Shown: one piece after another, positions 1,049-18,693 of the stretch
Layout of the letters: each line of letters opens with the position of its first letter
How positions within the stretch are numbered: position 1 is the stretch's first letter
From: an uncultured virus (IMG/VR IMGVR_UViG_3300029787_000004)
Taxonomy: Duplodnaviria > Heunggongvirae > Uroviricota > Caudoviricetes
Virus record (IMG/VR): IMGVR_UViG_3300029787_000004
Reading direction: 5' to 3' (one strand)
Length of the DNA stretch: 20,000 nucleotides
The notes under the pieces: generated by a model
What the model saw: the letters and a program-made list of their open reading frames with translations, nothing else
What the model was told of the DNA's origin: nothing
The model's database searches: none
Made by a program: the position numbers and the translations under genes

Positions 1049-3132
1049 AAGTCAAGGGTACGGTCGCCAAACTTTTGGCACAAGAGAATTTGATTGTCGA
1101 ACACAAAAACGTTCAGACAGCTCAGTTCAACGTTGATACCCGTGTTCTTACTCTCCCTGTATGGGAGCGTGCAAGCGAAGAGATCTTTGATCTTCTAGTT
1201 GCTCATGAGGTTGGACATGCTCTCTACACTCCCAATGTAGATCCTCCTAAGAATGTTCCACATGCTTTTATTAATGTGGTGGAGGATGTTCGGATTGAAA
1301 AACTTATCAAACGTAGATTTGGTGGTCTTTCTAAAACTTTCTATAAAGGATATCAAGAGTTTCATGATATGGATTTCTTCTCCACTAAGGGAGAAGATTT
1401 TACCAAGATGTCTCTTGCAGATCGTGTGAATCTACACTTCAAGGTTGGTCCTTTCCTTGGTATCAAGTTCGCTCTTGAAGAGCAACCAATCGTTCAATCT
1501 ATTCAAAACTCTGAAACTTGGGAAGATGTCCTCACTGCCGCTAAACTTCTCTACCTATTCGACAAAGAGAAAGCTCAACAACCAAAGAAAGAAAATGACT
1601 CGGAGAGTGAGGAAATTACTTCGGGATCGCAGGTGGGGAACAGCACTGATGGTGACGATAGGGGTGATAGCGATGATAACTCTGAGTCCGATCCTATTGA
1701 TAGTTGGGATGATCCTGATCAAAGCGATATGGATCCTGACGATTCTGATACTCGCCAGAATCCTTCTGAGCCTTCTGTAAATACTGCTGAATCTGAAAGT
1801 GGAGCAATCAAAAATTTAGCAAGTTTTGGTGGTAGGGAATCTCGCTATGTTCAAATCCCTGATATTCCTATTGAAAAGGTAGTCATTCCTAACAAAGAGA
1901 TTGATAAAAGACTTACTTTATTTTGGGACATCATGTATAGAGATATTGATGATCGTTGTAATCCAATAACTTATCTTAAAAATGAATATGTAAAGTATAA
2001 AAAGTCTGTGCAGAAAGAAGTAAATTATATGGTCAAAGAGTTTGAGTGTCGCAAATCAGCTGATGCTTACTCACGTGCTTCAACCAGTAGAACTGGTGTG
2101 CTGGATTGTGGTAAACTTCACACTTACAAATTCAATGAGGATCTATTCAAAAAAGTAACTACGATTCCTGATGGAAAAAATCATGGACTAATTTTCATTC
2201 TCGATTGGTCTGGGTCTATGGGAGCATGTCTTGAAGAGACTGCCAAGCAATTGTTCAACCTTGCTTGGTTCTGTCGTAAAGTTAATATTCCCTTTCGAGT
2301 CTACGCATTCACAAACTGTTGGCATGAAGAAGTAGATGAAAGTAATCATGTCAGCAGTTTGATTGATGATCCCAAACCTAATGAGTTGTGGATTGAGAAA
2401 ACTTTTCGTCTTCTTGAATTCATCAACAGTGATTGCAACGCTATGGAATTTGAAAAGCAATGCCTTAACTTTTGGAATTTGTCCGCAGGATATCAGAGAG
2501 TTCATCTCCCTATGGGATTTCGTCTTAGCGGAACTCCTCTTAATGAAGTGATTATGTGTCTTCATAATATTATTCCTGAGTTTAAATCTCAGAAGCGACT
2601 TCAAAAAGTTCATACTGTTATCCTAACTGACGGAGAATCTCAGTTTCTTACTTTTGGAAGAATGCGTACTACCTATCAAGGAGATGAGGTATGTGTTCCA
2701 TCATCACTTAATTTCAATACTAATGTTTATCTTCGCGACCCCGTTCTTCGAACAACTTACAAACTGGACAAGTGGGATAGTGTAGATGATTTGATCAAAA
2801 ACTTTACTGATAGAAATCCTGATGTAAATGTTATTGGTATAAGGTTATCTAGCACTAGTGAACTCAATAAGTTTCTAAAATGTAAAATTAATAACCCAGA
2901 TGTTATATCAAAATATGTAAAAACATTTGTGAAACAAAAATCCGTTTCCGTTGATGTTCCTGCTTATTCCAAGATGTTTGTGATGAATCAAACAAACATG
3001 CATAACACTGTCGATTTTGACGTTGCTGAGGGTGCGAACAAGTCAACTATCCGTGCTGCGTTCAAAAAATCATTGACAAAATCCAAGTTTAATCGTAAAA
3101 TTCTATCAGAGTTCGTGGAGTTGGTTGCGTGA
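1033..3132 (+). CDS. HExxH metallopeptidase-like domain + acidic linker + VWA/MIDAS domain protein (CobT-like partner of phage CobS)
   Basis: HEVGH near N-terminus, NVVEDVRIE downstream, D/S/E-rich linker, MIDAS elements DWSGS...GTP...TDGE. Confidence 0.88.
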   Translation: MSVNLEVKGTVAKLLAQENLIVEHKNVQTAQFNVDTRVLTLPVWERASEEIFDLLVAHEVGHALYTPNVDPPKNVPHAFINVVEDVRIEKLIKRRFGGLSKTFYKGYQEFHDMDFFSTKGEDFTKMSLADRVNLHFKVGPFLGIKFALEEQPIVQSIQNSETWEDVLTAAKLLYLFDKEKAQQPKKENDSESEEITSGSQVGNSTDGDDRGDSDDNSESDPIDSWDDPDQSDMDPDDSDTRQNPSEPSVNTAESESGAIKNLASFGGRESRYVQIPDIPIEKVVIPNKEIDKRLTLFWDIMYRDIDDRCNPITYLKNEYVKYKKSVQKEVNYMVKEFECRKSADAYSRASTSRTGVLDCGKLHTYKFNEDLFKKVTTIPDGKNHGLIFILDWSGSMGACLEETAKQLFNLAWFCRKVNIPFRVYAFTNCWHEEVDESNHVSSLIDDPKPNELWIEKTFRLLEFINSDCNAMEFEKQCLNFWNLSAGYQRVHLPMGFRLSGTPLNEVIMCLHNIIPEFKSQKRLQKVHTVILTDGESQFLTFGRMRTTYQGDEVCVPSSLNFNTNVYLRDPVLRTTYKLDKWDSVDDLIKNFTDRNPDVNVIGIRLSSTSELNKFLKCKINNPDVISKYVKTFVKQKSVSVDVPAYSKMFVMNQTNMHNTVDFDVAEGANKSTIRAAFKKSLTKSKFNRKILSEFVELVA

Positions 3133-8837: not shown

Positions 8838-9212
8838 ATGGAACTAAAAGATTGGATGAACTCTATAAATTATAATAAAGAGGACATCGCCACAAATGAA
8901 ACAATTGGCTCTTACCCTCCATATATCGTTAATCGCTGTTTGTCTAGTCACGTTGACAGTATCATGTTCTCTAATGAGATGAATCTTAATCATCATCTCT
9001 CCAAAGACATGCAATATAAATTTTATCTAAATAGTCTGAGGAAAAGGAAGAGATTCTCTCCTTGGATAAAGAAAGATAAAGTAGAAAACCTTGATATTGT
9101 CAAACGGTATTATGGTTATAGTAATGAGAAAGCATCTCAGGCACTAAAAATTTTATCTAAACAACAACTGGATTACATTAAACAACGACTTGATGTTGGA
9201 GGAATGAGATGA
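8838..9212 (+). CDS. gp62: Clamp loader small subunit
   Basis: YPPYIVNRCLS, NEMN, RKRKRFSPW, YYGYSNEKA; directly upstream of regA. Confidence 0.93.
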   Translation: MELKDWMNSINYNKEDIATNETIGSYPPYIVNRCLSSHVDSIMFSNEMNLNHHLSKDMQYKFYLNSLRKRKRFSPWIKKDKVENLDIVKRYYGYSNEKASQALKILSKQQLDYIKQRLDVGGMR

Positions 9213-9637
9213 GTACCGTGAGAGAGCCTGAGGTTCAGTGGTCACAAGACCAAATGATTGAAGTTAGGTTGAGAGAACCTGATGATTTTCTTAAAGTAAG
9301 AGAAACGCTAACACGTATTGGTGTTGCGTCTCGTAAAGAGAAGAAGTTATATCAGTCATGTCACATCCTACATAAACAGGGACGATATTTTATCGTTCAT
9401 TTTAAAGAACTGTTTGCATTGGATGGGAAGCACGCTAATCTTACTCCTAATGACGTTCAGCGTAGGAATCGTATTACTCAACTTCTTTCTGACTGGGGTC
9501 TCATTGAGGTAGTCAATGCCGAGACTATTACTGAGATTGCTCCTTTGAATCAGATCAAGGTGCTTTCCTTCAAAGAAAAAAATGAGTGGACGTTAGAGAC
9601 TAAGTATAATATTGGCAAAAAGAAAACTCAGGAATGA
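9209..9637 (+). CDS. regA: RegA translational repressor
   Basis: DDFLKVRETLTRIGVAS, LYQSCHILHKQGRYFIVHFKELFALDG. Confidence 0.97.
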   Translation: MSTVREPEVQWSQDQMIEVRLREPDDFLKVRETLTRIGVASRKEKKLYQSCHILHKQGRYFIVHFKELFALDGKHANLTPNDVQRRNRITQLLSDWGLIEVVNAETITEIAPLNQIKVLSFKEKNEWTLETKYNIGKKKTQE

Positions 9638-10191
9638 AGAGGCAAATCTTAAAAGATTGTGTATATAAAACCAGAGTAAAAGATCACAAAGAAGTAAAAA
9701 AGGTTATCCTCAACTATATTGAGGACCAACCTTTTCTTGCTCAAAATTCTTACATTGATAATATATCAAAGTTTGATTGGCCTCAGGGTAGTGATTTTGA
9801 GAGACCATGGGTGCAATATTTTTTACCTCACTTCGAAAAAAGTATAGGAGAACTATGTGCTAACATCGGAGTTTCTCGTATAAGATCTTTGGATGCAATT
9901 TGGTTTCAACAATATGTTGAAGGAAGTTCTCATGGATGGCATATACATGATGGTCAATTCACTGGTGTATACTATTTGGAATTACCAGAAAATTCTCCAC
10001 GCACCGAGTTCATGCATCCGTTCACTGGAAATATTGATAAGGTAAAAGCAAAAGAAGGTGACATTATATTTTTTCCAAGTCACATCATACACAGAGCATC
10101 CTCAAACAAAAATCAAAGAAAGACAATAATTAGTTACAACTTCAATATTCTAGATCGTATCATGAGAAGTGATTTAGAAAATACATTATAA
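9634..10191 (+). CDS. Putative 2OG-Fe(II) oxygenase
   Basis: WFQQY...HGWHIH...FTGVYYL...EGDIIFFPSHIIH...RKTIISYN double-stranded beta-helix pattern. Confidence 0.8.
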   Translation: MKRQILKDCVYKTRVKDHKEVKKVILNYIEDQPFLAQNSYIDNISKFDWPQGSDFERPWVQYFLPHFEKSIGELCANIGVSRIRSLDAIWFQQYVEGSSHGWHIHDGQFTGVYYLELPENSPRTEFMHPFTGNIDKVKAKEGDIIFFPSHIIHRASSNKNQRKTIISYNFNILDRIMRSDLENTL

Positions 10192-10194
10192 ATA
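10187..10194 (+). promoter_or_regulatory. T4-type late promoter TATAAATA
   Basis: Exact consensus overlapping the oxygenase stop codon. Confidence 0.8.
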
Positions 10195-10195
10195 A

Positions 10196-10275
10196 ACCTG
10201 AGACCTTTCGTGCGGTCTCTACGAAAGTCGGAACACCATATAAAGAGGTTCGGTTACTACCGTTCCTCTTTTTTT
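10196..10275 (+). ncRNA. Candidate late small RNA 1 (~80 nt), family not recognised
   Basis: Bounded by TATAAATA and an intrinsic terminator; GC-rich structured core GAGACC/GGTCTC and CTTTCGT/ACGAAAG; no ATG-initiated ORF. Confidence 0.6.
10242..10275. terminator. Intrinsic terminator, probably bidirectional
   Basis: AAAGAGG-TT-CGGT-tact-ACCG-TT-CCTC followed by T7 on +; followed by TTTATAT on -; lies at the convergence with the minus-strand operon. Confidence 0.8.
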
Positions 10276-10406
10276 ATGCCATCAGTTGATACAGAATTGA
10301 TGAGCAACCAGAATTCTTCTGGGTTTTTGAGTGCCCACGTAGCAATTTTTTCTGCTGTCTTCTTATCTCCAAACATGTTTTGGAGTTTCATGCAAGGTAC
10401 TAGCAT
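10257..10406 (-). CDS. Hypothetical 49-aa protein (MLVPCMKLQNMFGDKKTAEKIATWALKNPEEFWLLINSVSTDGIKKEER), not in ORF track
   Basis: ATG 1 nt after the stop of the 70-aa ORF; GAGAGGA SD upstream; stop falls in the terminator loop. Confidence 0.55.
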   Translation of the reverse strand: MLVPCMKLQNMFGDKKTAEKIATWALKNPEEFWLLINSVSTDGIKKEER

Positions 10407-10407
10407 A

Positions 10408-10620
10408 TTATTTCCTCTCTGCCTTCTCTACAAAAGAGAGCATATTGTCTGCTACTTGTTTTATTTCCACCTCAGTTGGAAATGTTGGATAGGGACCTGT
10501 TTCTTCTCCTTTTTCTTGCAATGATTGCCAGCGATTTACTTCTGCTTCGTGTCTATTTAATAGACGGGTTTCTGCATTCTGGAAAACTTCCCAGCGCATT
10601 TCATATGGATTAAAACCCAT
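10408..10620 (-). CDS. Small helical hypothetical protein (PYE.R...YPTFPT..EI...A....FV type)
   Basis: Strong SD AAGGAG 6 nt before ATG; own late promoter; protein-like composition. Confidence 0.85.
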   Translation of the reverse strand: MGFNPYEMRWEVFQNAETRLLNRHEAEVNRWQSLQEKGEETGPYPTFPTEVEIKQVADNMLSFVEKAERK

Positions 10621-10730
10621 TTGATACTCCTTTTGTGTTATTATGATCTGTGTCTGTCTGTATGTTGTGTGTACCCTGTGTGTATGCCTTGCGGCGGTTG
10701 GGATATACTTACATTCACAAATCTTGTTTC

Positions 10731-10738
10731 TATTTATA
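10731..10738 (-). promoter_or_regulatory. T4-type late promoter TATAAATA (minus strand)
   Basis: TATTTATA on +; about 110 nt upstream of the ATG at 10620. Confidence 0.8.
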
Positions 10739-10774
10739 AGGTAGAGTTTTCCACACCTACTTTTTTATAAGATG

Positions 10775-10844
10775 TGCTACTATATACTACGGATGCCTTT
10801 GGGGTCCACAAAACACAAACTCGCTTTTAAAGGAGCTAAGAATC
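10775..10844 (+). promoter_or_regulatory. hsp20 promoter and structured 5' leader
   Basis: TGc-TACTAT extended -10 (10775-10783) overlapping late-like CTATATA; hairpin 10791-10807; CA linker; CTCGCTTTTAAAGGAG hairpin containing the SD. Confidence 0.65.
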
Positions 10845-11297
10845 ATGGGTAACCTTAATACCTACAAATATGGTGCGTCTGATCTTCCTGCGTTGATGGA
10901 ACGCCTAAATAAACATAGTATTGGTATGGATCAATATTTTGACAAACTGTTTACTCTACAAGAAACACAGTCAAACTATCCCCCATACAATTTAATTCAA
11001 GTTAGTAGCACAGAGTCGCTCCTTGAATTAGCACTAGCAGGATTTAAAAAAGAAGAAGTAAATGTCTACACACAAGACGGTAAACTCTTTGTCGAAGGAC
11101 AAAGGGAGGATACCGAATCCGAAAAAACCTATGTCCATAGAGGAATGGCTCAACGATCTTTCACTAGATCATGGACCCTTAGTGACGAGACGGAAGTTAG
11201 ATCAGTTAGCTTTGAGGATGGGTTGCTGAGTATTACACTTGGTAGAATTGCACCAGAACATCATCAAAGAAAGGTTTGGTTTGGAAATACTGACTGA
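10845..11297 (+). CDS. hsp20: Small heat shock protein (alpha-crystallin domain)
   Basis: NYPPYNL, LELALAGF, YVHRGMAQRSFTRSWTL, FEDGLLSI. Confidence 0.96.
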   Translation: MGNLNTYKYGASDLPALMERLNKHSIGMDQYFDKLFTLQETQSNYPPYNLIQVSSTESLLELALAGFKKEEVNVYTQDGKLFVEGQREDTESEKTYVHRGMAQRSFTRSWTLSDETEVRSVSFEDGLLSITLGRIAPEHHQRKVWFGNTD

Positions 11298-11310
11298 ATT
11301 TAGATGTGGT

Positions 11311-11340
11311 TGATACAAAAGTGTATCACTGTGATACACT
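11311..11340. repeat. Triple alternating TGATACA half-site including a 21-bp palindrome
   Basis: TGATACA 11311-11317, TGTATCA 11322-11328, TGATACA 11332-11338; AGTGTATCAC-T-GTGATACACT at 11320-11340. Confidence 0.85.
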
Positions 11341-11345
11341 AATTT

Positions 11346-11352
11346 CTAAATA
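11346..11352 (+). promoter_or_regulatory. Late promoter variant CTAAATA
   Basis: Intergenic TAAATA core upstream of AGGAGG and ATG 11379. Confidence 0.65.
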
Positions 11353-11378
11353 ATTTTGTAATCGATTAGGAGGCATCA

Positions 11379-11462
11379 ATGAACTTCACGACCACTGCCC
11401 TAGCAGCTGGAACTTTAATGACTATTTTTATTGGAGTTCCCATTACTACATTTGTTTCTTAG
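11379..11462 (+). CDS. 27-aa hydrophobic microprotein MNFTTTALAAGTLMTIFIGVPITTFVS
   Basis: Perfect SD AGGAGG at 11368-11373, late promoter upstream, uncharged TM-like sequence. Confidence 0.7.
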   Translation: MNFTTTALAAGTLMTIFIGVPITTFVS

Positions 11463-11465
11463 CAT

Positions 11466-11540
11466 ATGGAAATCTTAGCAACCCTAGCCATTTTTGGAGC
11501 AGTGATGAGTGGAGCATTTGCACTCACACCTAAAAAGTAA
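11466..11540 (+). CDS. 24-aa hydrophobic microprotein MEILATLAIFGAVMSGAFALTPKK
   Basis: Starts 3 nt after preceding stop; TM-like helix with acidic N-terminus and KK C-terminus. Confidence 0.6.
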   Translation: MEILATLAIFGAVMSGAFALTPKK

Positions 11541-11550
11541 ATACTAAATA
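11537..11550 (+). promoter_or_regulatory. Tandem late-promoter-like boxes GTAAATA / CTAAATA
   Basis: GTAAATA 11537-11543 and CTAAATA 11544-11550. Confidence 0.6.
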
Positions 11551-11551
11551 A

Positions 11552-11612
11552 AACTGAATATCGTCGCCGCAGAGGGGCAACTGGCACAATCCAGTTGACG
11601 CCCCTCTTTTTT
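11552..11612 (+). ncRNA. Candidate late small RNA 2 (~60 nt)
   Basis: Late box, then unpaired AACTGAATATCGTCGCCGC, then long hairpin and T6; no ORF. Confidence 0.5.
11571..11612 (+). terminator. Intrinsic terminator
   Basis: AGAGGGGC-AACTGG-cacaat-CCAGTT-gac-GCCCCTCT running into a T6 tract (11607-11612). Confidence 0.85.
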
Positions 11613-11623
11613 CTTGCTATAAT
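11595..11623 (+). promoter_or_regulatory. Near-consensus sigma70 promoter for the Sm-like/gp43 operon
   Basis: TTGACG (11595-11600), 17-nt spacer, TATAAT (11618-11623), with extended -10 TG. Confidence 0.85.
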
Positions 11624-11644
11624 GTATTCGAGATGTATTGACCT

Positions 11645-11974
11645 ATGATCAAGTTAGCAGTATTGAAGTCAGGTGAGGATGTCATCGCAGACGTTAGTGA
11701 AATGCTAATGGGTGAGCGTGTGATTGGATACACATTCAAGAACCCTGCCACAGTAAGATTTCTAGATCCTCAGGCGTTGTATGAACATCGAGACCTAGAT
11801 ATTGTTTTTGCCCCATGGATTCCTCTGACAAGTCAGAAAGAGATCCCTGTTGCCCCAGACTGGATTATAACTCTGGTCGATCCCATTCCACAAGTAACTC
11901 AAAAGTATAAAGAAGGTATTAAAGATGATCAAACTTCTAGTTCTGACAAATCAGATTCTGATCTCACAGATTGA
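11645..11974 (+). CDS. Sm/LSm-like fold protein (cyanophage Sm_like family)
   Basis: IKLAVLKSGEDVIADV...KNP...FAPWIPLT..KEIPV..DWIITLVDP....Y resembles, from memory, the cyanophage Sm-like protein ECX21941. Confidence 0.7.
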   Translation: MIKLAVLKSGEDVIADVSEMLMGERVIGYTFKNPATVRFLDPQALYEHRDLDIVFAPWIPLTSQKEIPVAPDWIITLVDPIPQVTQKYKEGIKDDQTSSSDKSDSDLTD

Positions 11975-12167
11975 AGAGGTGGGTTCTGAATTAGGAGAAC
12001 CAGATTGTAAATTGATTGAACCCTATGTGGTAGAATCAACTGGTATTGCTCCGTGGTTGATGGAGCACACTATTCAGAGTGAATTTATGATTAGTTCTGA
12101 CAAAGTTTTGACGATGGCAGAACCAAATAATCAACTACTTGAAAAATATAAAGAAGTTCTTTCTTAA
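11925..12167 (+). CDS. Second, shorter Sm-like paralog
   Basis: Same layout: MIKLLVL...LISQIEEV...LIEP...APW...EFMISSDKVLTMAEP...EKY; TAATG-coupled to gp43. Confidence 0.6.
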   Translation: MIKLLVLTNQILISQIEEVGSELGEPDCKLIEPYVVESTGIAPWLMEHTIQSEFMISSDKVLTMAEPNNQLLEKYKEVLS

Positions 12168-14677
12168 TGAGATTCTACACTAACGTTCAACTTGTTGGGA
12201 ACCAGTTTCTGGTTCGTGGTTATGATAATGGTGAGAGCTTTTCTTTAAGAGAAGAGTATCTCCCAACACTCTTTGTTGATAGCAAGAAGACAACATCCAA
12301 GTATAAGACCTTGGATGGTAAAATAGTAGAACCTGTTCAACCTGGATTTGTAAGAGATTGTCGTGACTTCCTTAAAAAGTATGAGGGAGTTGAGGGATTT
12401 AATATCTATGGCAATGAGCGTTACATCTATCAATATATTTCTGATAAGTATCCTCAGGAACATATTGAGTTTGATATCTCAAAGATCAAACTTACTACGC
12501 TTGATATTGAGACCACTACTGAGTATGGATTCCCCGATATTGAGTCTTGTCGTGAAGAGATACAAACGATTACGATTCAGGATTACACAACTAAGGAAAT
12601 TACTACGTGGGGAGTTCACCCATTCTTAGTAAAACAACGTAACGTAAAGTACGTTCAGTGTCTTGATGAACTTGATTTGCTTAACAAGTTCATTTGTTAT
12701 TGGGAGAATAATCCACCTGAGGTTATCACAGGATGGAACCTTCAATTATTTGACATCCCATACATCGCTGGACGCCTCAGGAAGGTGCTTGGCGAGAAAC
12801 GTATGAAGAGACTGTCTCCTTGGGGTCTAGTGACCGAGAAGGAAGTCTATATCAAAGGAAGAAAGCACCTATCAATTGATATTGGTGGTGTGACGCAGTT
12901 AGATTATCTTGATCTGTATAAGAAATTTACATATAAGGCACAAGAATCATATCGTCTAGATCACATTGCGAATGTTGAGTTAGGTCAGAAGAAGTTAGAC
13001 CACTCTGAGTTTGATACTTTTAAGGATTTCTATACTGGCAACTGGCAAAAGTTTGTTGAGTACAACATTAAAGACGTGGAACTTGTTGACCGGTTGGAAG
13101 ACAAGATGAAGTTGATTGAGTTGGCACTTACAATGGCATATGATGCCAAGGTAAACTTTACTGATGTGTTTTATCAGGTAAGGATGTGGGATGCTATCAT
13201 CTACAACTATCTCAAAAAGAAAAACATTGTCATTCCACCCAAGGTAGGTGCCAAGAAAGATGAAAAGTATGCTGGTGCATATGTCAAAGAACCCATTCCT
13301 GGTAGCTATGATTGGGTAGTTTCTTTTGACTTGAATAGTCTGTATCCGCATTTGATCATGCAATACAATATCTCACCAGAAACTCTGATGGATGAACCAC
13401 ATCCACGATGTTCTGTTGATAAGATTTTGTCTGGTTCCTTTATTGCTGATGGTCGTTATGCCACAGCAGCAAATGGTGCCATGTATCGTAAGGACAAACG
13501 TGGATTCTTGCCTGAGTTGATGGATAAGATCTATCAAGAACGCACGATTTATAAAAAGAGGATGCTAACTGCTAGCCAGAAGATAGAAAACTTGTCGGAT
13601 GGTGAGTGGCATCTTAAATCTGACTTGGAAAAGGAAGTGTCTAGATGCAACAACATCCAAATGGCACGTAAGATTCAACTTAACTCTGCTTATGGTGCCA
13701 TTGGTAACCAATATTTCCGATATTATAAGTTGGAAAACGCTGAGGCAATCACTCTGTCTGGTCAAGCATCAATCCGATGGATTGAGAATAAGATGAATGA
13801 TTATCTAAATAAACTCTTGTCTACACAGGAAGAGGATTACGTCATTGCATCCGACACTGACTCAATTTATCTTAACCTCGGACCTCTTGTTACTAAATTT
13901 CTTGGTAGTAAGTCTGGTGATAAGATTAAAGTTGTGGAGTTACTTGACAAAATCTGTCAAGATAAGTTGGAACCATTCATCGAAAAGTCTTACAAGGAAC
14001 TGGCAGACTATGTTGCGGCATATGAACAAAAAATGGTGATGAAGCGTGAGAATATTGCTGATCGCGGTATCTGGACTGCGAAGAAGCGATACATTCTCAA
14101 CGTATGGAACAGTGAGGGTGTTCAGTATGCTGAACCTAAACTCAAAGTCATGGGTATTGAGGCAGTCAAGTCTTCCACACCTGCACCTTGCCGCAAGATG
14201 TTGAAGGATGCCTTTAAAATTATGATGACGGGTAGTGAGAATGATGTGATTGATTACATCGATAAGTGTAGATCTGAATTTAAGAGTCTCAATCCTGAGG
14301 ACGTTTCTTTTCCACGTTCTATATCTGATGTTGAGAAATATAAATCATCTTCCGAGATATATTCAAAGGGGACTCCTATTCATAGTCGTGGCGCATTGTT
14401 ATTCAACTTCTATATCAAGCAAAATAAACTAACCAATAAATATTCTCTGATTAAGAATGGAGAAAAGATTAAGTTTTTGTATTTAAAAAAACCAAATCCT
14501 ATTCATGAAAATGTGCTTTCATTTATAAATGAATGGCCAAAAGAATTGGATCTCAATCAGTACATAGATTACGATCTTCAATTCAGTAAAGCATTCTTAG
14601 AACCATTAAAGATCATCCTAGATTCTATCGGATGGTCTGTTGAAAAAACCGCTAACTTGGAGGCATTCTTCTCATGA
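12167..14677 (+). CDS. gp43: Family B DNA polymerase
   Basis: ExoI DIETT, ExoII WN...FD, motif A SFDLNSLYP, motif B KIQLNSAYG, motif C SDTDS, KKRY, C-terminal clamp-binding LEAFF. Confidence 0.98.
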   Translation: MRFYTNVQLVGNQFLVRGYDNGESFSLREEYLPTLFVDSKKTTSKYKTLDGKIVEPVQPGFVRDCRDFLKKYEGVEGFNIYGNERYIYQYISDKYPQEHIEFDISKIKLTTLDIETTTEYGFPDIESCREEIQTITIQDYTTKEITTWGVHPFLVKQRNVKYVQCLDELDLLNKFICYWENNPPEVITGWNLQLFDIPYIAGRLRKVLGEKRMKRLSPWGLVTEKEVYIKGRKHLSIDIGGVTQLDYLDLYKKFTYKAQESYRLDHIANVELGQKKLDHSEFDTFKDFYTGNWQKFVEYNIKDVELVDRLEDKMKLIELALTMAYDAKVNFTDVFYQVRMWDAIIYNYLKKKNIVIPPKVGAKKDEKYAGAYVKEPIPGSYDWVVSFDLNSLYPHLIMQYNISPETLMDEPHPRCSVDKILSGSFIADGRYATAANGAMYRKDKRGFLPELMDKIYQERTIYKKRMLTASQKIENLSDGEWHLKSDLEKEVSRCNNIQMARKIQLNSAYGAIGNQYFRYYKLENAEAITLSGQASIRWIENKMNDYLNKLLSTQEEDYVIASDTDSIYLNLGPLVTKFLGSKSGDKIKVVELLDKICQDKLEPFIEKSYKELADYVAAYEQKMVMKRENIADRGIWTAKKRYILNVWNSEGVQYAEPKLKVMGIEAVKSSTPAPCRKMLKDAFKIMMTGSENDVIDYIDKCRSEFKSLNPEDVSFPRSISDVEKYKSSSEIYSKGTPIHSRGALLFNFYIKQNKLTNKYSLIKNGEKIKFLYLKKPNPIHENVLSFINEWPKELDLNQYIDYDLQFSKAFLEPLKIILDSIGWSVEKTANLEAFFS

Positions 14678-18457: not shown

Positions 18458-18681
18458 AACTATTGACACTTGATGATTACATCGAAGCAGGAGAAAAATT
18501 CTTTCCCAAGTATTATTATGTAATGGGTGAGATGGGTGAAGATGCTAAACCAGAAGACGTTCTTAAAGTTATGGAAGCAGTTGGTGGTCTTGCATTAAAG
18601 ATGCGTCTTGACAAAGATGATGAAGTAGGACCTTTTGGATTCAATAAGAAGAAAGAAGAAGAAAAGGAAGAGTCTAAATAG
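18454..18681 (+). CDS. Hypothetical protein
   Basis: 75-aa ORF coupled to upstream peptide. Confidence 0.75.
   Translation: MKLLTLDDYIEAGEKFFPKYYYVMGEMGEDAKPEDVLKVMEAVGGLALKMRLDKDDEVGPFGFNKKKEEEKEESK
18674..18680 (+). promoter_or_regulatory. Late promoter variant CTAAATA
   Basis: Overlaps upstream stop codon, 13 nt before ATG 18694. Confidence 0.6.
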
Positions 18682-18693
18682 TTAAAAAGTGTG

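Follow-up and report, generated by a model that had tools for sequence, protein, structure and literature searches.

Among the systems described so far that come closest to the elements reported here are the promoter-early stem-loop (PeSL) cassettes of T4-like phages, which according to the available parts of PMC2839356 and PMC4122927 occur as series of copies in a genome and are defined by a stem-loop and a promoter only. Here we describe two short elements, E1 and E2, found in a stretch of 20,000 nt of DNA from an uncultured virus (IMG/VR record IMGVR_UViG_3300029787_000004). This whole stretch, hereafter the window, is a replication module of a T4-like cyanomyovirus and holds nearly all of its genes on the + strand, as seen from Pfam, PHROG and open reading frame (ORF) calls. 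Like a PeSL, E2 combines a terminator stem-loop with a near-consensus sigma-70 promoter, and it is situated at borders of differing gene content between related phages. Unlike the PeSLs, E2 is single-copy and has an invariant single-stranded segment of 15 nt together with an upstream TAAATA box, conserved across genera; E1, also in contrast to PeSLs, has no sigma-70 promoter. There is no mention of cyanophages in the available text of PMC4122927 (Comeau 2014).

The spacer between regA and gene 43 of phage T4 occupies the same position in the module as E1 and E2, after regA and before the polymerase operon. It consists of a G/C-rich hairpin (AAGGGGC...GCCCCTT), a T-rich run, TATAAT and then a hairpin with an 8-nt loop in front of gene 43; the names terminator, promoter and operator for these parts are in part those of PMC3014915. 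E2 has a comparable outer stem (GAGGGGC/GCCCCTC), followed by T6 and TATAAT. Because the T4 spacer has the same layout, the terminator and promoter function of E2 is, by analogy, probably ancestral and ordinary. The differences are that in the cyanophage hsp20 and two genes for Sm-like proteins (D1 and D2) stand between regA and gene 43, that the start of the polymerase gene overlaps the stop of D2, so that there is no operator hairpin, and that E1 and E2 have TAAATA boxes of their own and cores with no likeness to the T4 spacer. The new part is the conserved RNA cores.

Bacterial and phage small RNAs of the Hfq type (e.g. lambda OOP) are similar to E1 and E2 in size (57–76 nt), in having a conserved unpaired segment and a U-tailed rho-independent terminator, and in the presence of a promoter-like box. 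They differ in that the promoter of E1 and E2 would be of the T4 late type, and in that E1 and E2 are known from sequence alone. Of the cyanophage RNAs in a review (PMC12197685), CfrI alone has a function proposed for it, and a T4 review (PMC3014915) states that in the T4-like lineage the functional characterisation of a trans-acting small RNA is still to come.

The reading that we favour, and to which we give somewhat better than even weight, is that E1 and E2 are structured RNA elements of T4-like cyanophages, present in one copy and confined to phage DNA, with two roles each, as probable late small RNAs and as operon punctuation.

RESULTS

Conservation and distribution of E1 and E2

A megablast search with the whole locus returned few matches beyond pieces of hsp20, E1 and E2; at the nucleotide level the two elements are much better conserved than the flanking genes. 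With sensitive blastn we observed E2 in 290 phage records, at 290 places (246 of them at 80–90% identity), and E1 in 233 phage records, at 233 places (113 at 90–95%, mostly over the first 50 nt). The records are nearly all from Synechococcus phages, with only four (E2) and eight (E1) Prochlorococcus-phage records. Among the ~438 Synechococcus-phage records with regA, a rough denominator made up of 377 ‘Synechococcus’ and 61 ‘Cyanophage’ records, E2 is present in 285 and E1 in 223, i.e. in over half. In IMG/VR, the exact 36-nt E1 core occurred in 114 stretches and the E2 pattern in at least 120. The record nearest to the window, a 41-kb fragment (G001), carries both elements at 97–98% identity. 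A covariance model of E2 gave a single match in four of five complete genomes and two matches in the remaining one, S-RIM44.

Host origin or mimicry of E1 and E2 was rejected. In a collection of 185,579 species, each represented by a single genome, the E1 core had no match, and the three matches to E2 were all in contigs of metagenome-assembled genomes (MAGs) and represent cyanophage DNA: the same contigs carry cyanophage hsp20 (3/3), regA (2/3) and D1 (2/3). The regA-hsp20-E2-DUF6561 modules concerned (L253, L254 and L255) were found in bins labelled Thermoplasmata archaeon, Acidibacter and Psychromonas, and are probably phage DNA that was mis-binned or mis-assembled.

No Rfam family was found at E1 or E2; with E values of up to 1 allowed, the window gave a single match, weak and unrelated (18580-18685). 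Full-text literature searches, with most subscription journals outside their reach, returned no earlier description of either element; nor are E1 and E2 described in the available text, supplements aside, of Sullivan 2010, of a 2025 review of phage small RNAs and of a 2023 survey of viral structured RNAs.

Structure and covariation

Each of the two RNAs folds better than 200 out of 200 shuffled sequences, with a minimum free energy of -25.4 kcal/mol (z -3.97) for E1 and -22 kcal/mol (z -3.46) for E2. E1 is made of a 5' hairpin, a single-stranded linker and a terminator hairpin with a U-run, and E2 of an unpaired segment followed by a bulged terminator hairpin and a T-run (Table 1). In two alignments gathered by exact core patterns, A5 (E1, 99 sequences) and A6 (E2, 122 sequences), the named structures were 88% and 94% paired; the covariation score was reached by none of 500 shuffles, and slid controls scored far lower.

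We also used an independent sample of 80 loci, gathered via protein D2 alone and then searched with covariance models. In this sample 10 of the 13 pairs of E2 (65 distinct rows) change on both sides, including three of the six apical ones, and 93% of cells are paired. For E1 (29 distinct rows) changes on both sides were seen in all six pairs of the 5' hairpin and in 10 of 12 terminator pairs; variants of the hairpin arms such as GAGUCU/AGACUC, GCGAUC/GGUCGC and GUGCC/GGCAC can be recognised by eye. Many of the pairs are G-U or U-G when the + strand is read, and only then, since they become A-C mismatches on the other strand; selection therefore acts on the + strand RNA. E1 and E2 are + strand RNA structures under selection, with the anatomy of intrinsic terminators, and they vary in the way that functional RNAs should.

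The best-kept columns of the independent sample are the unpaired ones. Conservation of at least 90% was observed in the E1 loop UUUCGUGC and linker GUCGGAA and, save for one variable position, in the E2 5' segment GAAUAUCGUCG-N-CGC. The spacers that follow the TAAATA box are poorly kept.

Many E2 copies (alignment A6, columns 34–43) have an insertion of 4–10 nt on the 3' side of the invariant segment. The insertion can pair back onto this segment, e.g. as GGC...GCC or CGTC...GACG, and the one variable base of the segment varies with the type of insertion.

Some other candidates were considered and rejected. A short ORF in E2 is unconserved, its frame being shifted by the insertions. A pseudoknot or alternative stem in E1, pairing CUUUCGU with ACGAAAG, is contradicted by uncompensated G->A or A->U changes in its 3' half; by geometric reasoning, the loops of such a loop-linker stem would besides be too short.

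The original prediction for this locus, made from the sequence, had proposed two ORF-free promoter-to-terminator units. Both units are real, hold no convincing gene, lie where they had been placed and fold as described above. The term ORF-free has to be qualified for E1, which is overlapped by a 104-aa ORF on the + strand (10210-10524) and by the last codons of a 49-aa minus-strand ORF. The ‘promoter’ of each of the two units is a putative box of the T4 late type. We read the 104-aa ORF as spurious because it is antisense to two minus-strand ORFs.

TAAATA boxes and the sigma-70 promoter

E1 and E2 share a common plan: an invariant TAAATA and a variable spacer of 4–5 nt are followed by the conserved core, by the terminator, whose sequence varies, and by a T-run. 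Each of the 65 distinct E1 contexts has TAAATA, and in 63 the spacing is fixed; for E2, 112 of the 117 boxes stand 4 nt ahead of the core pattern used in the search, which is 5 nt ahead of the conserved GAAUAUCG segment. The box serves as stop codon of the upstream gene in 36/65 E1 contexts and 68/118 E2 contexts. It is kept where it is not a stop codon, and therefore the stop codon alone cannot explain it. A T4-type late promoter is recognised by TATAAATA near position -10, the form applied to cyanophages being ATAAATA. The form NATAAATA was observed in 54 of 65 E1 and 57 of 118 E2 contexts, the remainder having NCTAAATA. Sequence conservation begins at the place where a transcript of the T4 late type would start.

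The sigma-70-type promoter of E2 has its -35 hexamer (TTGACG, 11595-11600) in the bulge and the 3' arm of the E2 hairpin, bearing out the claim that the promoter of the Sm-like genes lies inside the hairpin of the second RNA. Both -35 and -10 are kept in the E2 alignments. Six sequences in the window match the sigma-70 consensus at 11 of 12 positions, and 11595-11623 is the only one beside a terminator hairpin; the other five have none. From its position we infer that this promoter drives D1, D2 and gp43. Four loci have E2 variants without a sigma-70 promoter: in these the 5' segment is kept and the hairpin is different.

Genomic context in related phages

The usual gene order, regA-E1-hsp20-E2-D1-D2-gp43, was derived with neighbour counts from our own ORF calls and blast clustering. 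E1 has regA upstream in 74 of 113 contexts and hsp20 downstream in 67 of 85; E2 is preceded by hsp20 in 55 of 118 contexts and followed by a DUF6561-like gene in 76 of 102. In the clade of the window, 69 of the 80 loci have E2 immediately before D1; among the other 11, at least four hold too little DNA on the upstream side.

Other arrangements were observed as well. In S-RIM8 and P-SSM7, E2 is situated in the hli/psbA region, after a DUF7191 gene and before unrelated genes, and in S-RIM12 E1 precedes nrdC. In contigs of relatives, similarity is confined to 11545-11623 or 10188-10275, with divergence outside, and the E2 matches break exactly at 11545 and 11623. Covariance models run on complete genomes placed E2 at ~25–31 kb from the D1/D2 pair in S-RIM8, S-RIM12, S-RIM44 and S-PM2; for P-SSM7 the distance is ~24 kb (blastn and family search). 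E1 was not found in the complete genome of S-PM2, which has E2 and the D1/D2 pair. P-SSM2 has the pair and no E1, and its match to the E2 model is unconvincing (22.9 bits, E 0.07).

Two observations concern the surroundings of E2 and the Sm-like genes in these phages. In S-RIM8 and P-SSM7 (L247:1230-1300, L248:1245-1300) a 76-aa gene stands in front of the Sm-like pair, and its leader has a conserved hairpin (GAAGAGACCC...GGGTCTC) and then a T-run directly 5' of the ribosome-binding site. In P-SSM2 (L336 2085-3234) genes of families DUF2997 and DUF1257 directly precede D1-D2-gp43 in one tight operon, and in P-SSM7 (L005 3575-4127) these two genes are found in the psbA region, directly behind E2. 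It may be that E2 moved along with a part of the operon seen in P-SSM2.

Sm-like proteins D1 and D2

The crystallised Sm-like protein of the 3by7 entry (five chains) was reportedly presented, together with its family and likely cyanophage origin, in an original paper by Das in 2009. The family DUF6561 and its likely cyanophage origin were known before the present work, as seen in the available parts of PMC3710371 and PMC12152347, the former describing the 3by7 protein as a pentamer; a ring state is known for 3by7 only.

Both D1 and D2 score above the curated gathering cut-off of PF20198 (27 bits). They are paralogues (hhalign probability 98%), encoded in overlapping frames: D2 overlaps D1 by 50 nt, and the stop of D2 overlaps the start of gp43. 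In sequence, 3by7 is matched by D1 with E 1e-4 and by D2 with E 0.85 only. AlphaFold2 models, built from alignments of 68 (D1) and 64 (D2) sequences, reached predicted local distance difference test values (pLDDT) of 88 and 93.8; they have five to six strands and a C-terminal helix, with no N-terminal helix. The best natural match of both models in Foldseek was 3by7, with a template modelling score (TM) of 0.90 and a root-mean-square deviation of 1.3–1.8 A for D1, and a TM of about 0.8 for D2. The first rank for D2 was a chain of the engineered TIP60 nanoparticle, which itself matches 3by7 in sequence, and the next ranks were taken by Sm, LSm and SmAP chains (E 0.02–0.1, TM 0.4–0.6). By their superposition on 3by7 both models belong to the Sm fold, which is characterised by a strongly bent five-stranded antiparallel beta-sheet. 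At the level of structure models the Sm-like fold of D1 and D2 is confirmed, and the expectation that both ORFs downstream of E2 are Sm-like held, with both placed next to 3by7.

D1 and D2 resemble 3by7 in matching PF20198 and superposing at TM 0.8–0.9; they differ from it in being tandem paralogues with overlapping frames and about 23–27% identity to 3by7. The helix of canonical Sm and Hfq proteins is N-terminal (PMC12152347, available part), whereas that of the D1 and D2 models is C-terminal. With E values of up to 1 allowed, neither protein matched LSM or Hfq in Pfam, and we found neither the Sm1/Sm2 motifs nor an N-terminal helix.

The DUF6561 tandem pair was detected by family search in five of five complete cyanomyovirus genomes and in none of 14 control genomes; with P-SSM2 and S-PM2, where it was identified by tblastn and annotation, the pair is present in seven of seven complete genomes. 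A tblastn census of the Sm-like gene gave 128 records but is insensitive, as it misses S-RIM8 and P-SSM7, which have the gene. Prediction of a D1+D2 complex scored 0.02 against a mark of 0.32, a result that speaks neither for nor against binding. A third, weaker DUF6561-like frame was seen 14–23 kb upstream of the D1/D2 pair in all five complete cyanomyovirus genomes (W01:112104-112364; W02–W05), and to judge from these frames the phages concerned may carry three Sm-like paralogues.

Other features of the locus

The genes of the window follow the order gp45 sliding clamp, gp44 clamp loader, Dam methylase, gp62, regA, 2-oxoglutarate (2OG)-Fe(II) oxygenase in the 5' part and hsp20, D1, D2, gp43, UvsX, gp41, MazG in the 3' part (Table 1). 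The presence of regA upstream of the two units, also part of the original prediction, is well supported (Pfam Translat_reg). Two structured CA-rich leaders had been proposed too; the leaders are indeed CA-rich, but their folding is no better than that of shuffles (z -0.95 and -1.55), and all that recurs of them in S-RIM44 is the small hairpin of the hsp20 leader. The syntenic polymerase gene is annotated gp43 in S-SM2, S-RIM44, S-PM2 and P-SSM2.

Table 1. Coordinates of E1, E2 and the surrounding features in the window
Feature	Position	Strand	Basis or remark
gp62	8838-9212	+	Pfam/PHROG/ORF calls
regA, translational repressor gene	9209..9637	+	Pfam PF01818 (Translat_reg) 6.4e-47; PHROG 242 4e-66
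2OG-Fe(II) oxygenase gene	9634..10191	+	Pfam PF13759 5.9e-9; PHROG 81 3.7e-31
E1, whole unit	10187-10275	+	box, spacer, core, terminator
E1 late-promoter-like box TATAAATA	10187-10194	+	one of only two exact matches in the window
E1 RNA core	10200..10275	+	fold, covariation, blastn
E1 5' hairpin	10200-10219	+	6 bp, 8-nt loop UUUCGUGC
E1 single-stranded linker	10220-10241	+	22 nt
E1 terminator hairpin	10242-10271	+	followed by U-run to 10275
Two minus-strand ORFs, 70 aa and 49 aa	10257..10620	-	ORF calls
hsp20 gene	10845..11297	+	Pfam HSP20 6e-16; PHROG 432 1e-52; often flanked by E1 and E2
Pair of tiny hydrophobic ORFs (27 and 24 aa)	11379..11540	+	translation; one frame, TAG between
E2, whole unit	11545-11623	+	box, spacer, core, terminator, sigma-70 promoter
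E2 TAAATA box	11545-11550	+	present in 117/118 distinct contexts
E2 RNA core	11556..11612	+	fold, covariation, blastn
E2 conserved unpaired segment GAAUAUCGUCGCCGC	11556-11570	+	15 nt
E2 terminator hairpin	11571-11607	+	3-nt bulge; T6 run to 11612
Sigma-70-type promoter TTGACG-17-TATAAT	11595..11623	+	11/12 consensus positions; TG-extended -10
D1, Sm-like-fold protein, DUF6561	11645..11974	+	109 aa; PF20198 30.7 bits
D2, Sm-like-fold paralogue, DUF6561	11925..12167	+	80 aa; PF20198 105 bits
DNA polymerase gp43	12167..14677	+	836-aa ORF; last gene of the putative E2-promoted unit

Three lineage-specific insertions are located near E1 and E2. One is the oxygenase gene, inserted in this lineage between regA and E1 and having its stop codon inside the E1 box. 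Another is the block 10276-10789, which holds the minus-strand ORFs; neither the 70-aa nor the 49-aa ORF has a family in Pfam or PHROG. The block is skipped in a contig from run X3, a metatranscriptome, where 10275 is joined to 10790, and it is absent from S-RIM44. Within the block the minus strand carries an exact TATAAATA at 10738-10731. The block resembles an inserted late-gene cassette, and the 5' hairpin of E1, when read on the minus strand, resembles its terminator.

The third insertion, of ~250 nt, contains the two tiny ORFs; G001 and S-SM2 do not have it. The 27-aa and 24-aa ORFs may represent separate mini-genes, one gene that has been split, or a candidate for read-through. The 24-aa ORF ends in TPKK, and other viral contigs have relatives of it just 5' of E2. 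Within the same insertion, just 3' of hsp20, there is a perfect palindrome of 10 bp around a 1-nt centre (11320-11340). The hsp20 leader has a hairpin (GGAUGCC-UUY-GGGGUCC, 10791-10807 in the window) that is kept in S-RIM44 (L007 about 3110–3130) and in metatranscriptome contigs.

DISCUSSION

In the dual-role reading favoured here, the hairpins of E1 and E2 would, early in infection, end the regA-operon and hsp20 transcripts made by the host RNA polymerase, and transcription of the D1-D2-gp43 operon would start at the E2 promoter. At the late stage RNAs of ~76 nt (E1) and ~57 nt (E2) would be transcribed from the TAAATA boxes under the direction of gp55; they may act via the unpaired segments that are conserved in them, through either base pairing or protein binding.

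Several considerations weigh against this reading. The invariance of the cores in alignments A5 and A6 is circular, as exact core patterns were used for collection, and the independent alignments A7 and A8 were fitted to the model structure, which favours that structure. About half of the E2 boxes are CTAAATA, neither ATAAATA nor the TATAAATA form of T4-type late promoters. The reverse complement of the E2 5' segment has no excess of near-matches over a reversed control in five complete phage genomes, and the window has no complementary site for E1 or E2, host genomes and short seeds being outside this search. Logan contigs from four RNA runs (three marine oligo-dT metatranscriptomes and one run of uncertain kind) cover E1 and E2, but such contigs cannot show starts, ends, strand or level and may hold DNA, so they are no evidence of transcription. 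Finally, a terminator and a promoter already explain part of the conservation.

This last point leads to a simpler explanation, credible though on the whole doubtful: E1 and E2 could be pure punctuation, i.e. terminator or terminator-plus-promoter cassettes akin to PeSLs, kept uniform by recombination at the borders of the cassettes and giving rise to no trans-acting RNA. E2 does have the layout described in the accessible text of PMC4122927, a stem-loop terminator beside a strong sigma-70 promoter; the genes around the elements vary between phages, with contigs of relatives matching the elements only; and the T4 regA-43 spacer shows the same succession of hairpin, T-rich run and TATAAT. However, each element occupies a single place in every record that has it (290/290 for E2 and 233/233 for E1), where PeSLs form copy series. 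The best-kept parts, the loop and linker of E1 and the 5' segment of E2, are needed neither for termination nor for a promoter, and the E2 segment survives the loss of the promoter, which E1 lacks altogether. An effect at the DNA level, with the elements serving as replication origin, recombination hotspot or operator (at the palindrome ACTGG-N6-CCAGT overlapping the -35), appears very improbable. The apical palindrome of E2 is far better kept than the outer stem and is replaced when the sigma-70 promoter is absent, and the elements sit in a cluster of replication genes. Yet the many compensatory G-U and U-G pairs would be A-C mismatches on the other strand, the apical stem covaries in the independent sample (AU to CG in 14 rows), and a T-run follows each hairpin on the + strand only.

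Two further alternatives keep a function in RNA. The original prediction took the U-tailed RNAs to be partners of the neighbouring Sm-like proteins; in its full form this would be an Hfq-like system, in which a ring of D1/D2 would take up E1 and E2, as late small RNAs, by their U-tails and, with the help of their invariant unpaired segments, reprogram phage or host mRNAs. The parts exist: both protein models share the Sm-like fold with 3BY7, each RNA has a terminal hairpin with a U-tail as well as conserved single-stranded segments, and E2 is directly upstream of D1 in 69 of the 80 clade loci. Moreover, 10 of 12 sequenced Prochlorococcus strains have no Hfq (PMC2518516, available part). The partnership itself is not supported, and we consider it unlikely. 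The conserved synteny that it called for failed, E2 being ~24–31 kb away from the pair in S-RIM8, S-RIM12, S-RIM44, S-PM2 and P-SSM7; where adjacency is kept, in the clade of the window, it is accounted for by E2 being the operon promoter, with no need for a link between RNA and protein. Co-occurrence with E1 and E2 is uninformative since the D1/D2 pair is present in all seven complete genomes, among them S-PM2, which has the pair without E1, and P-SSM2, which has it without a convincing E1 or E2. Pfam LSM and Hfq gave no match at E up to 1, and RNA-binding data for the family were not found. D1 and D2 are a separate conserved feature made with the DNA polymerase, and no evidence ties them to E1 and E2. 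It is still less probable that the elements act in cis as 3' untranslated regions, setting the stability of the upstream mRNA, marking RNase E sites or binding RegA or gp43 as decoys or operators. The box overlaps the upstream stop codon in over half of the contexts, so the elements start at the end of a coding region; E1 follows regA in 74/113 contexts; and, in T4, the gp43 RNA operator, lying in the regA-43 spacer, includes a hairpin, and the RegA sites are A+U-rich (PMC3014915, available part). But the sequences of E1 and E2 are kept behind unrelated upstream genes, the E1 loop is unlike the loop of the T4 operator, and the accessible text of the same source describes RegA sites as unstructured and overlapping start codons.

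Among the viruses of the main primary producers in the ocean, T4-like cyanophages belong to the most abundant, and almost no regulatory RNA is known from them. Should E1 and E2 be late small RNAs, as in the dual-role reading, the T4-like lineage would gain its first defined genes of this kind. In the plainer case of punctuation, they show where conserved operon borders lie, which present genome annotation overlooks. E1 and E2 are also two concrete candidate ligands for the long-orphaned Sm-like proteins of cyanophages; if the Hfq-like system were true, it would operate in many hosts, including most Prochlorococcus, that have no Hfq of their own.

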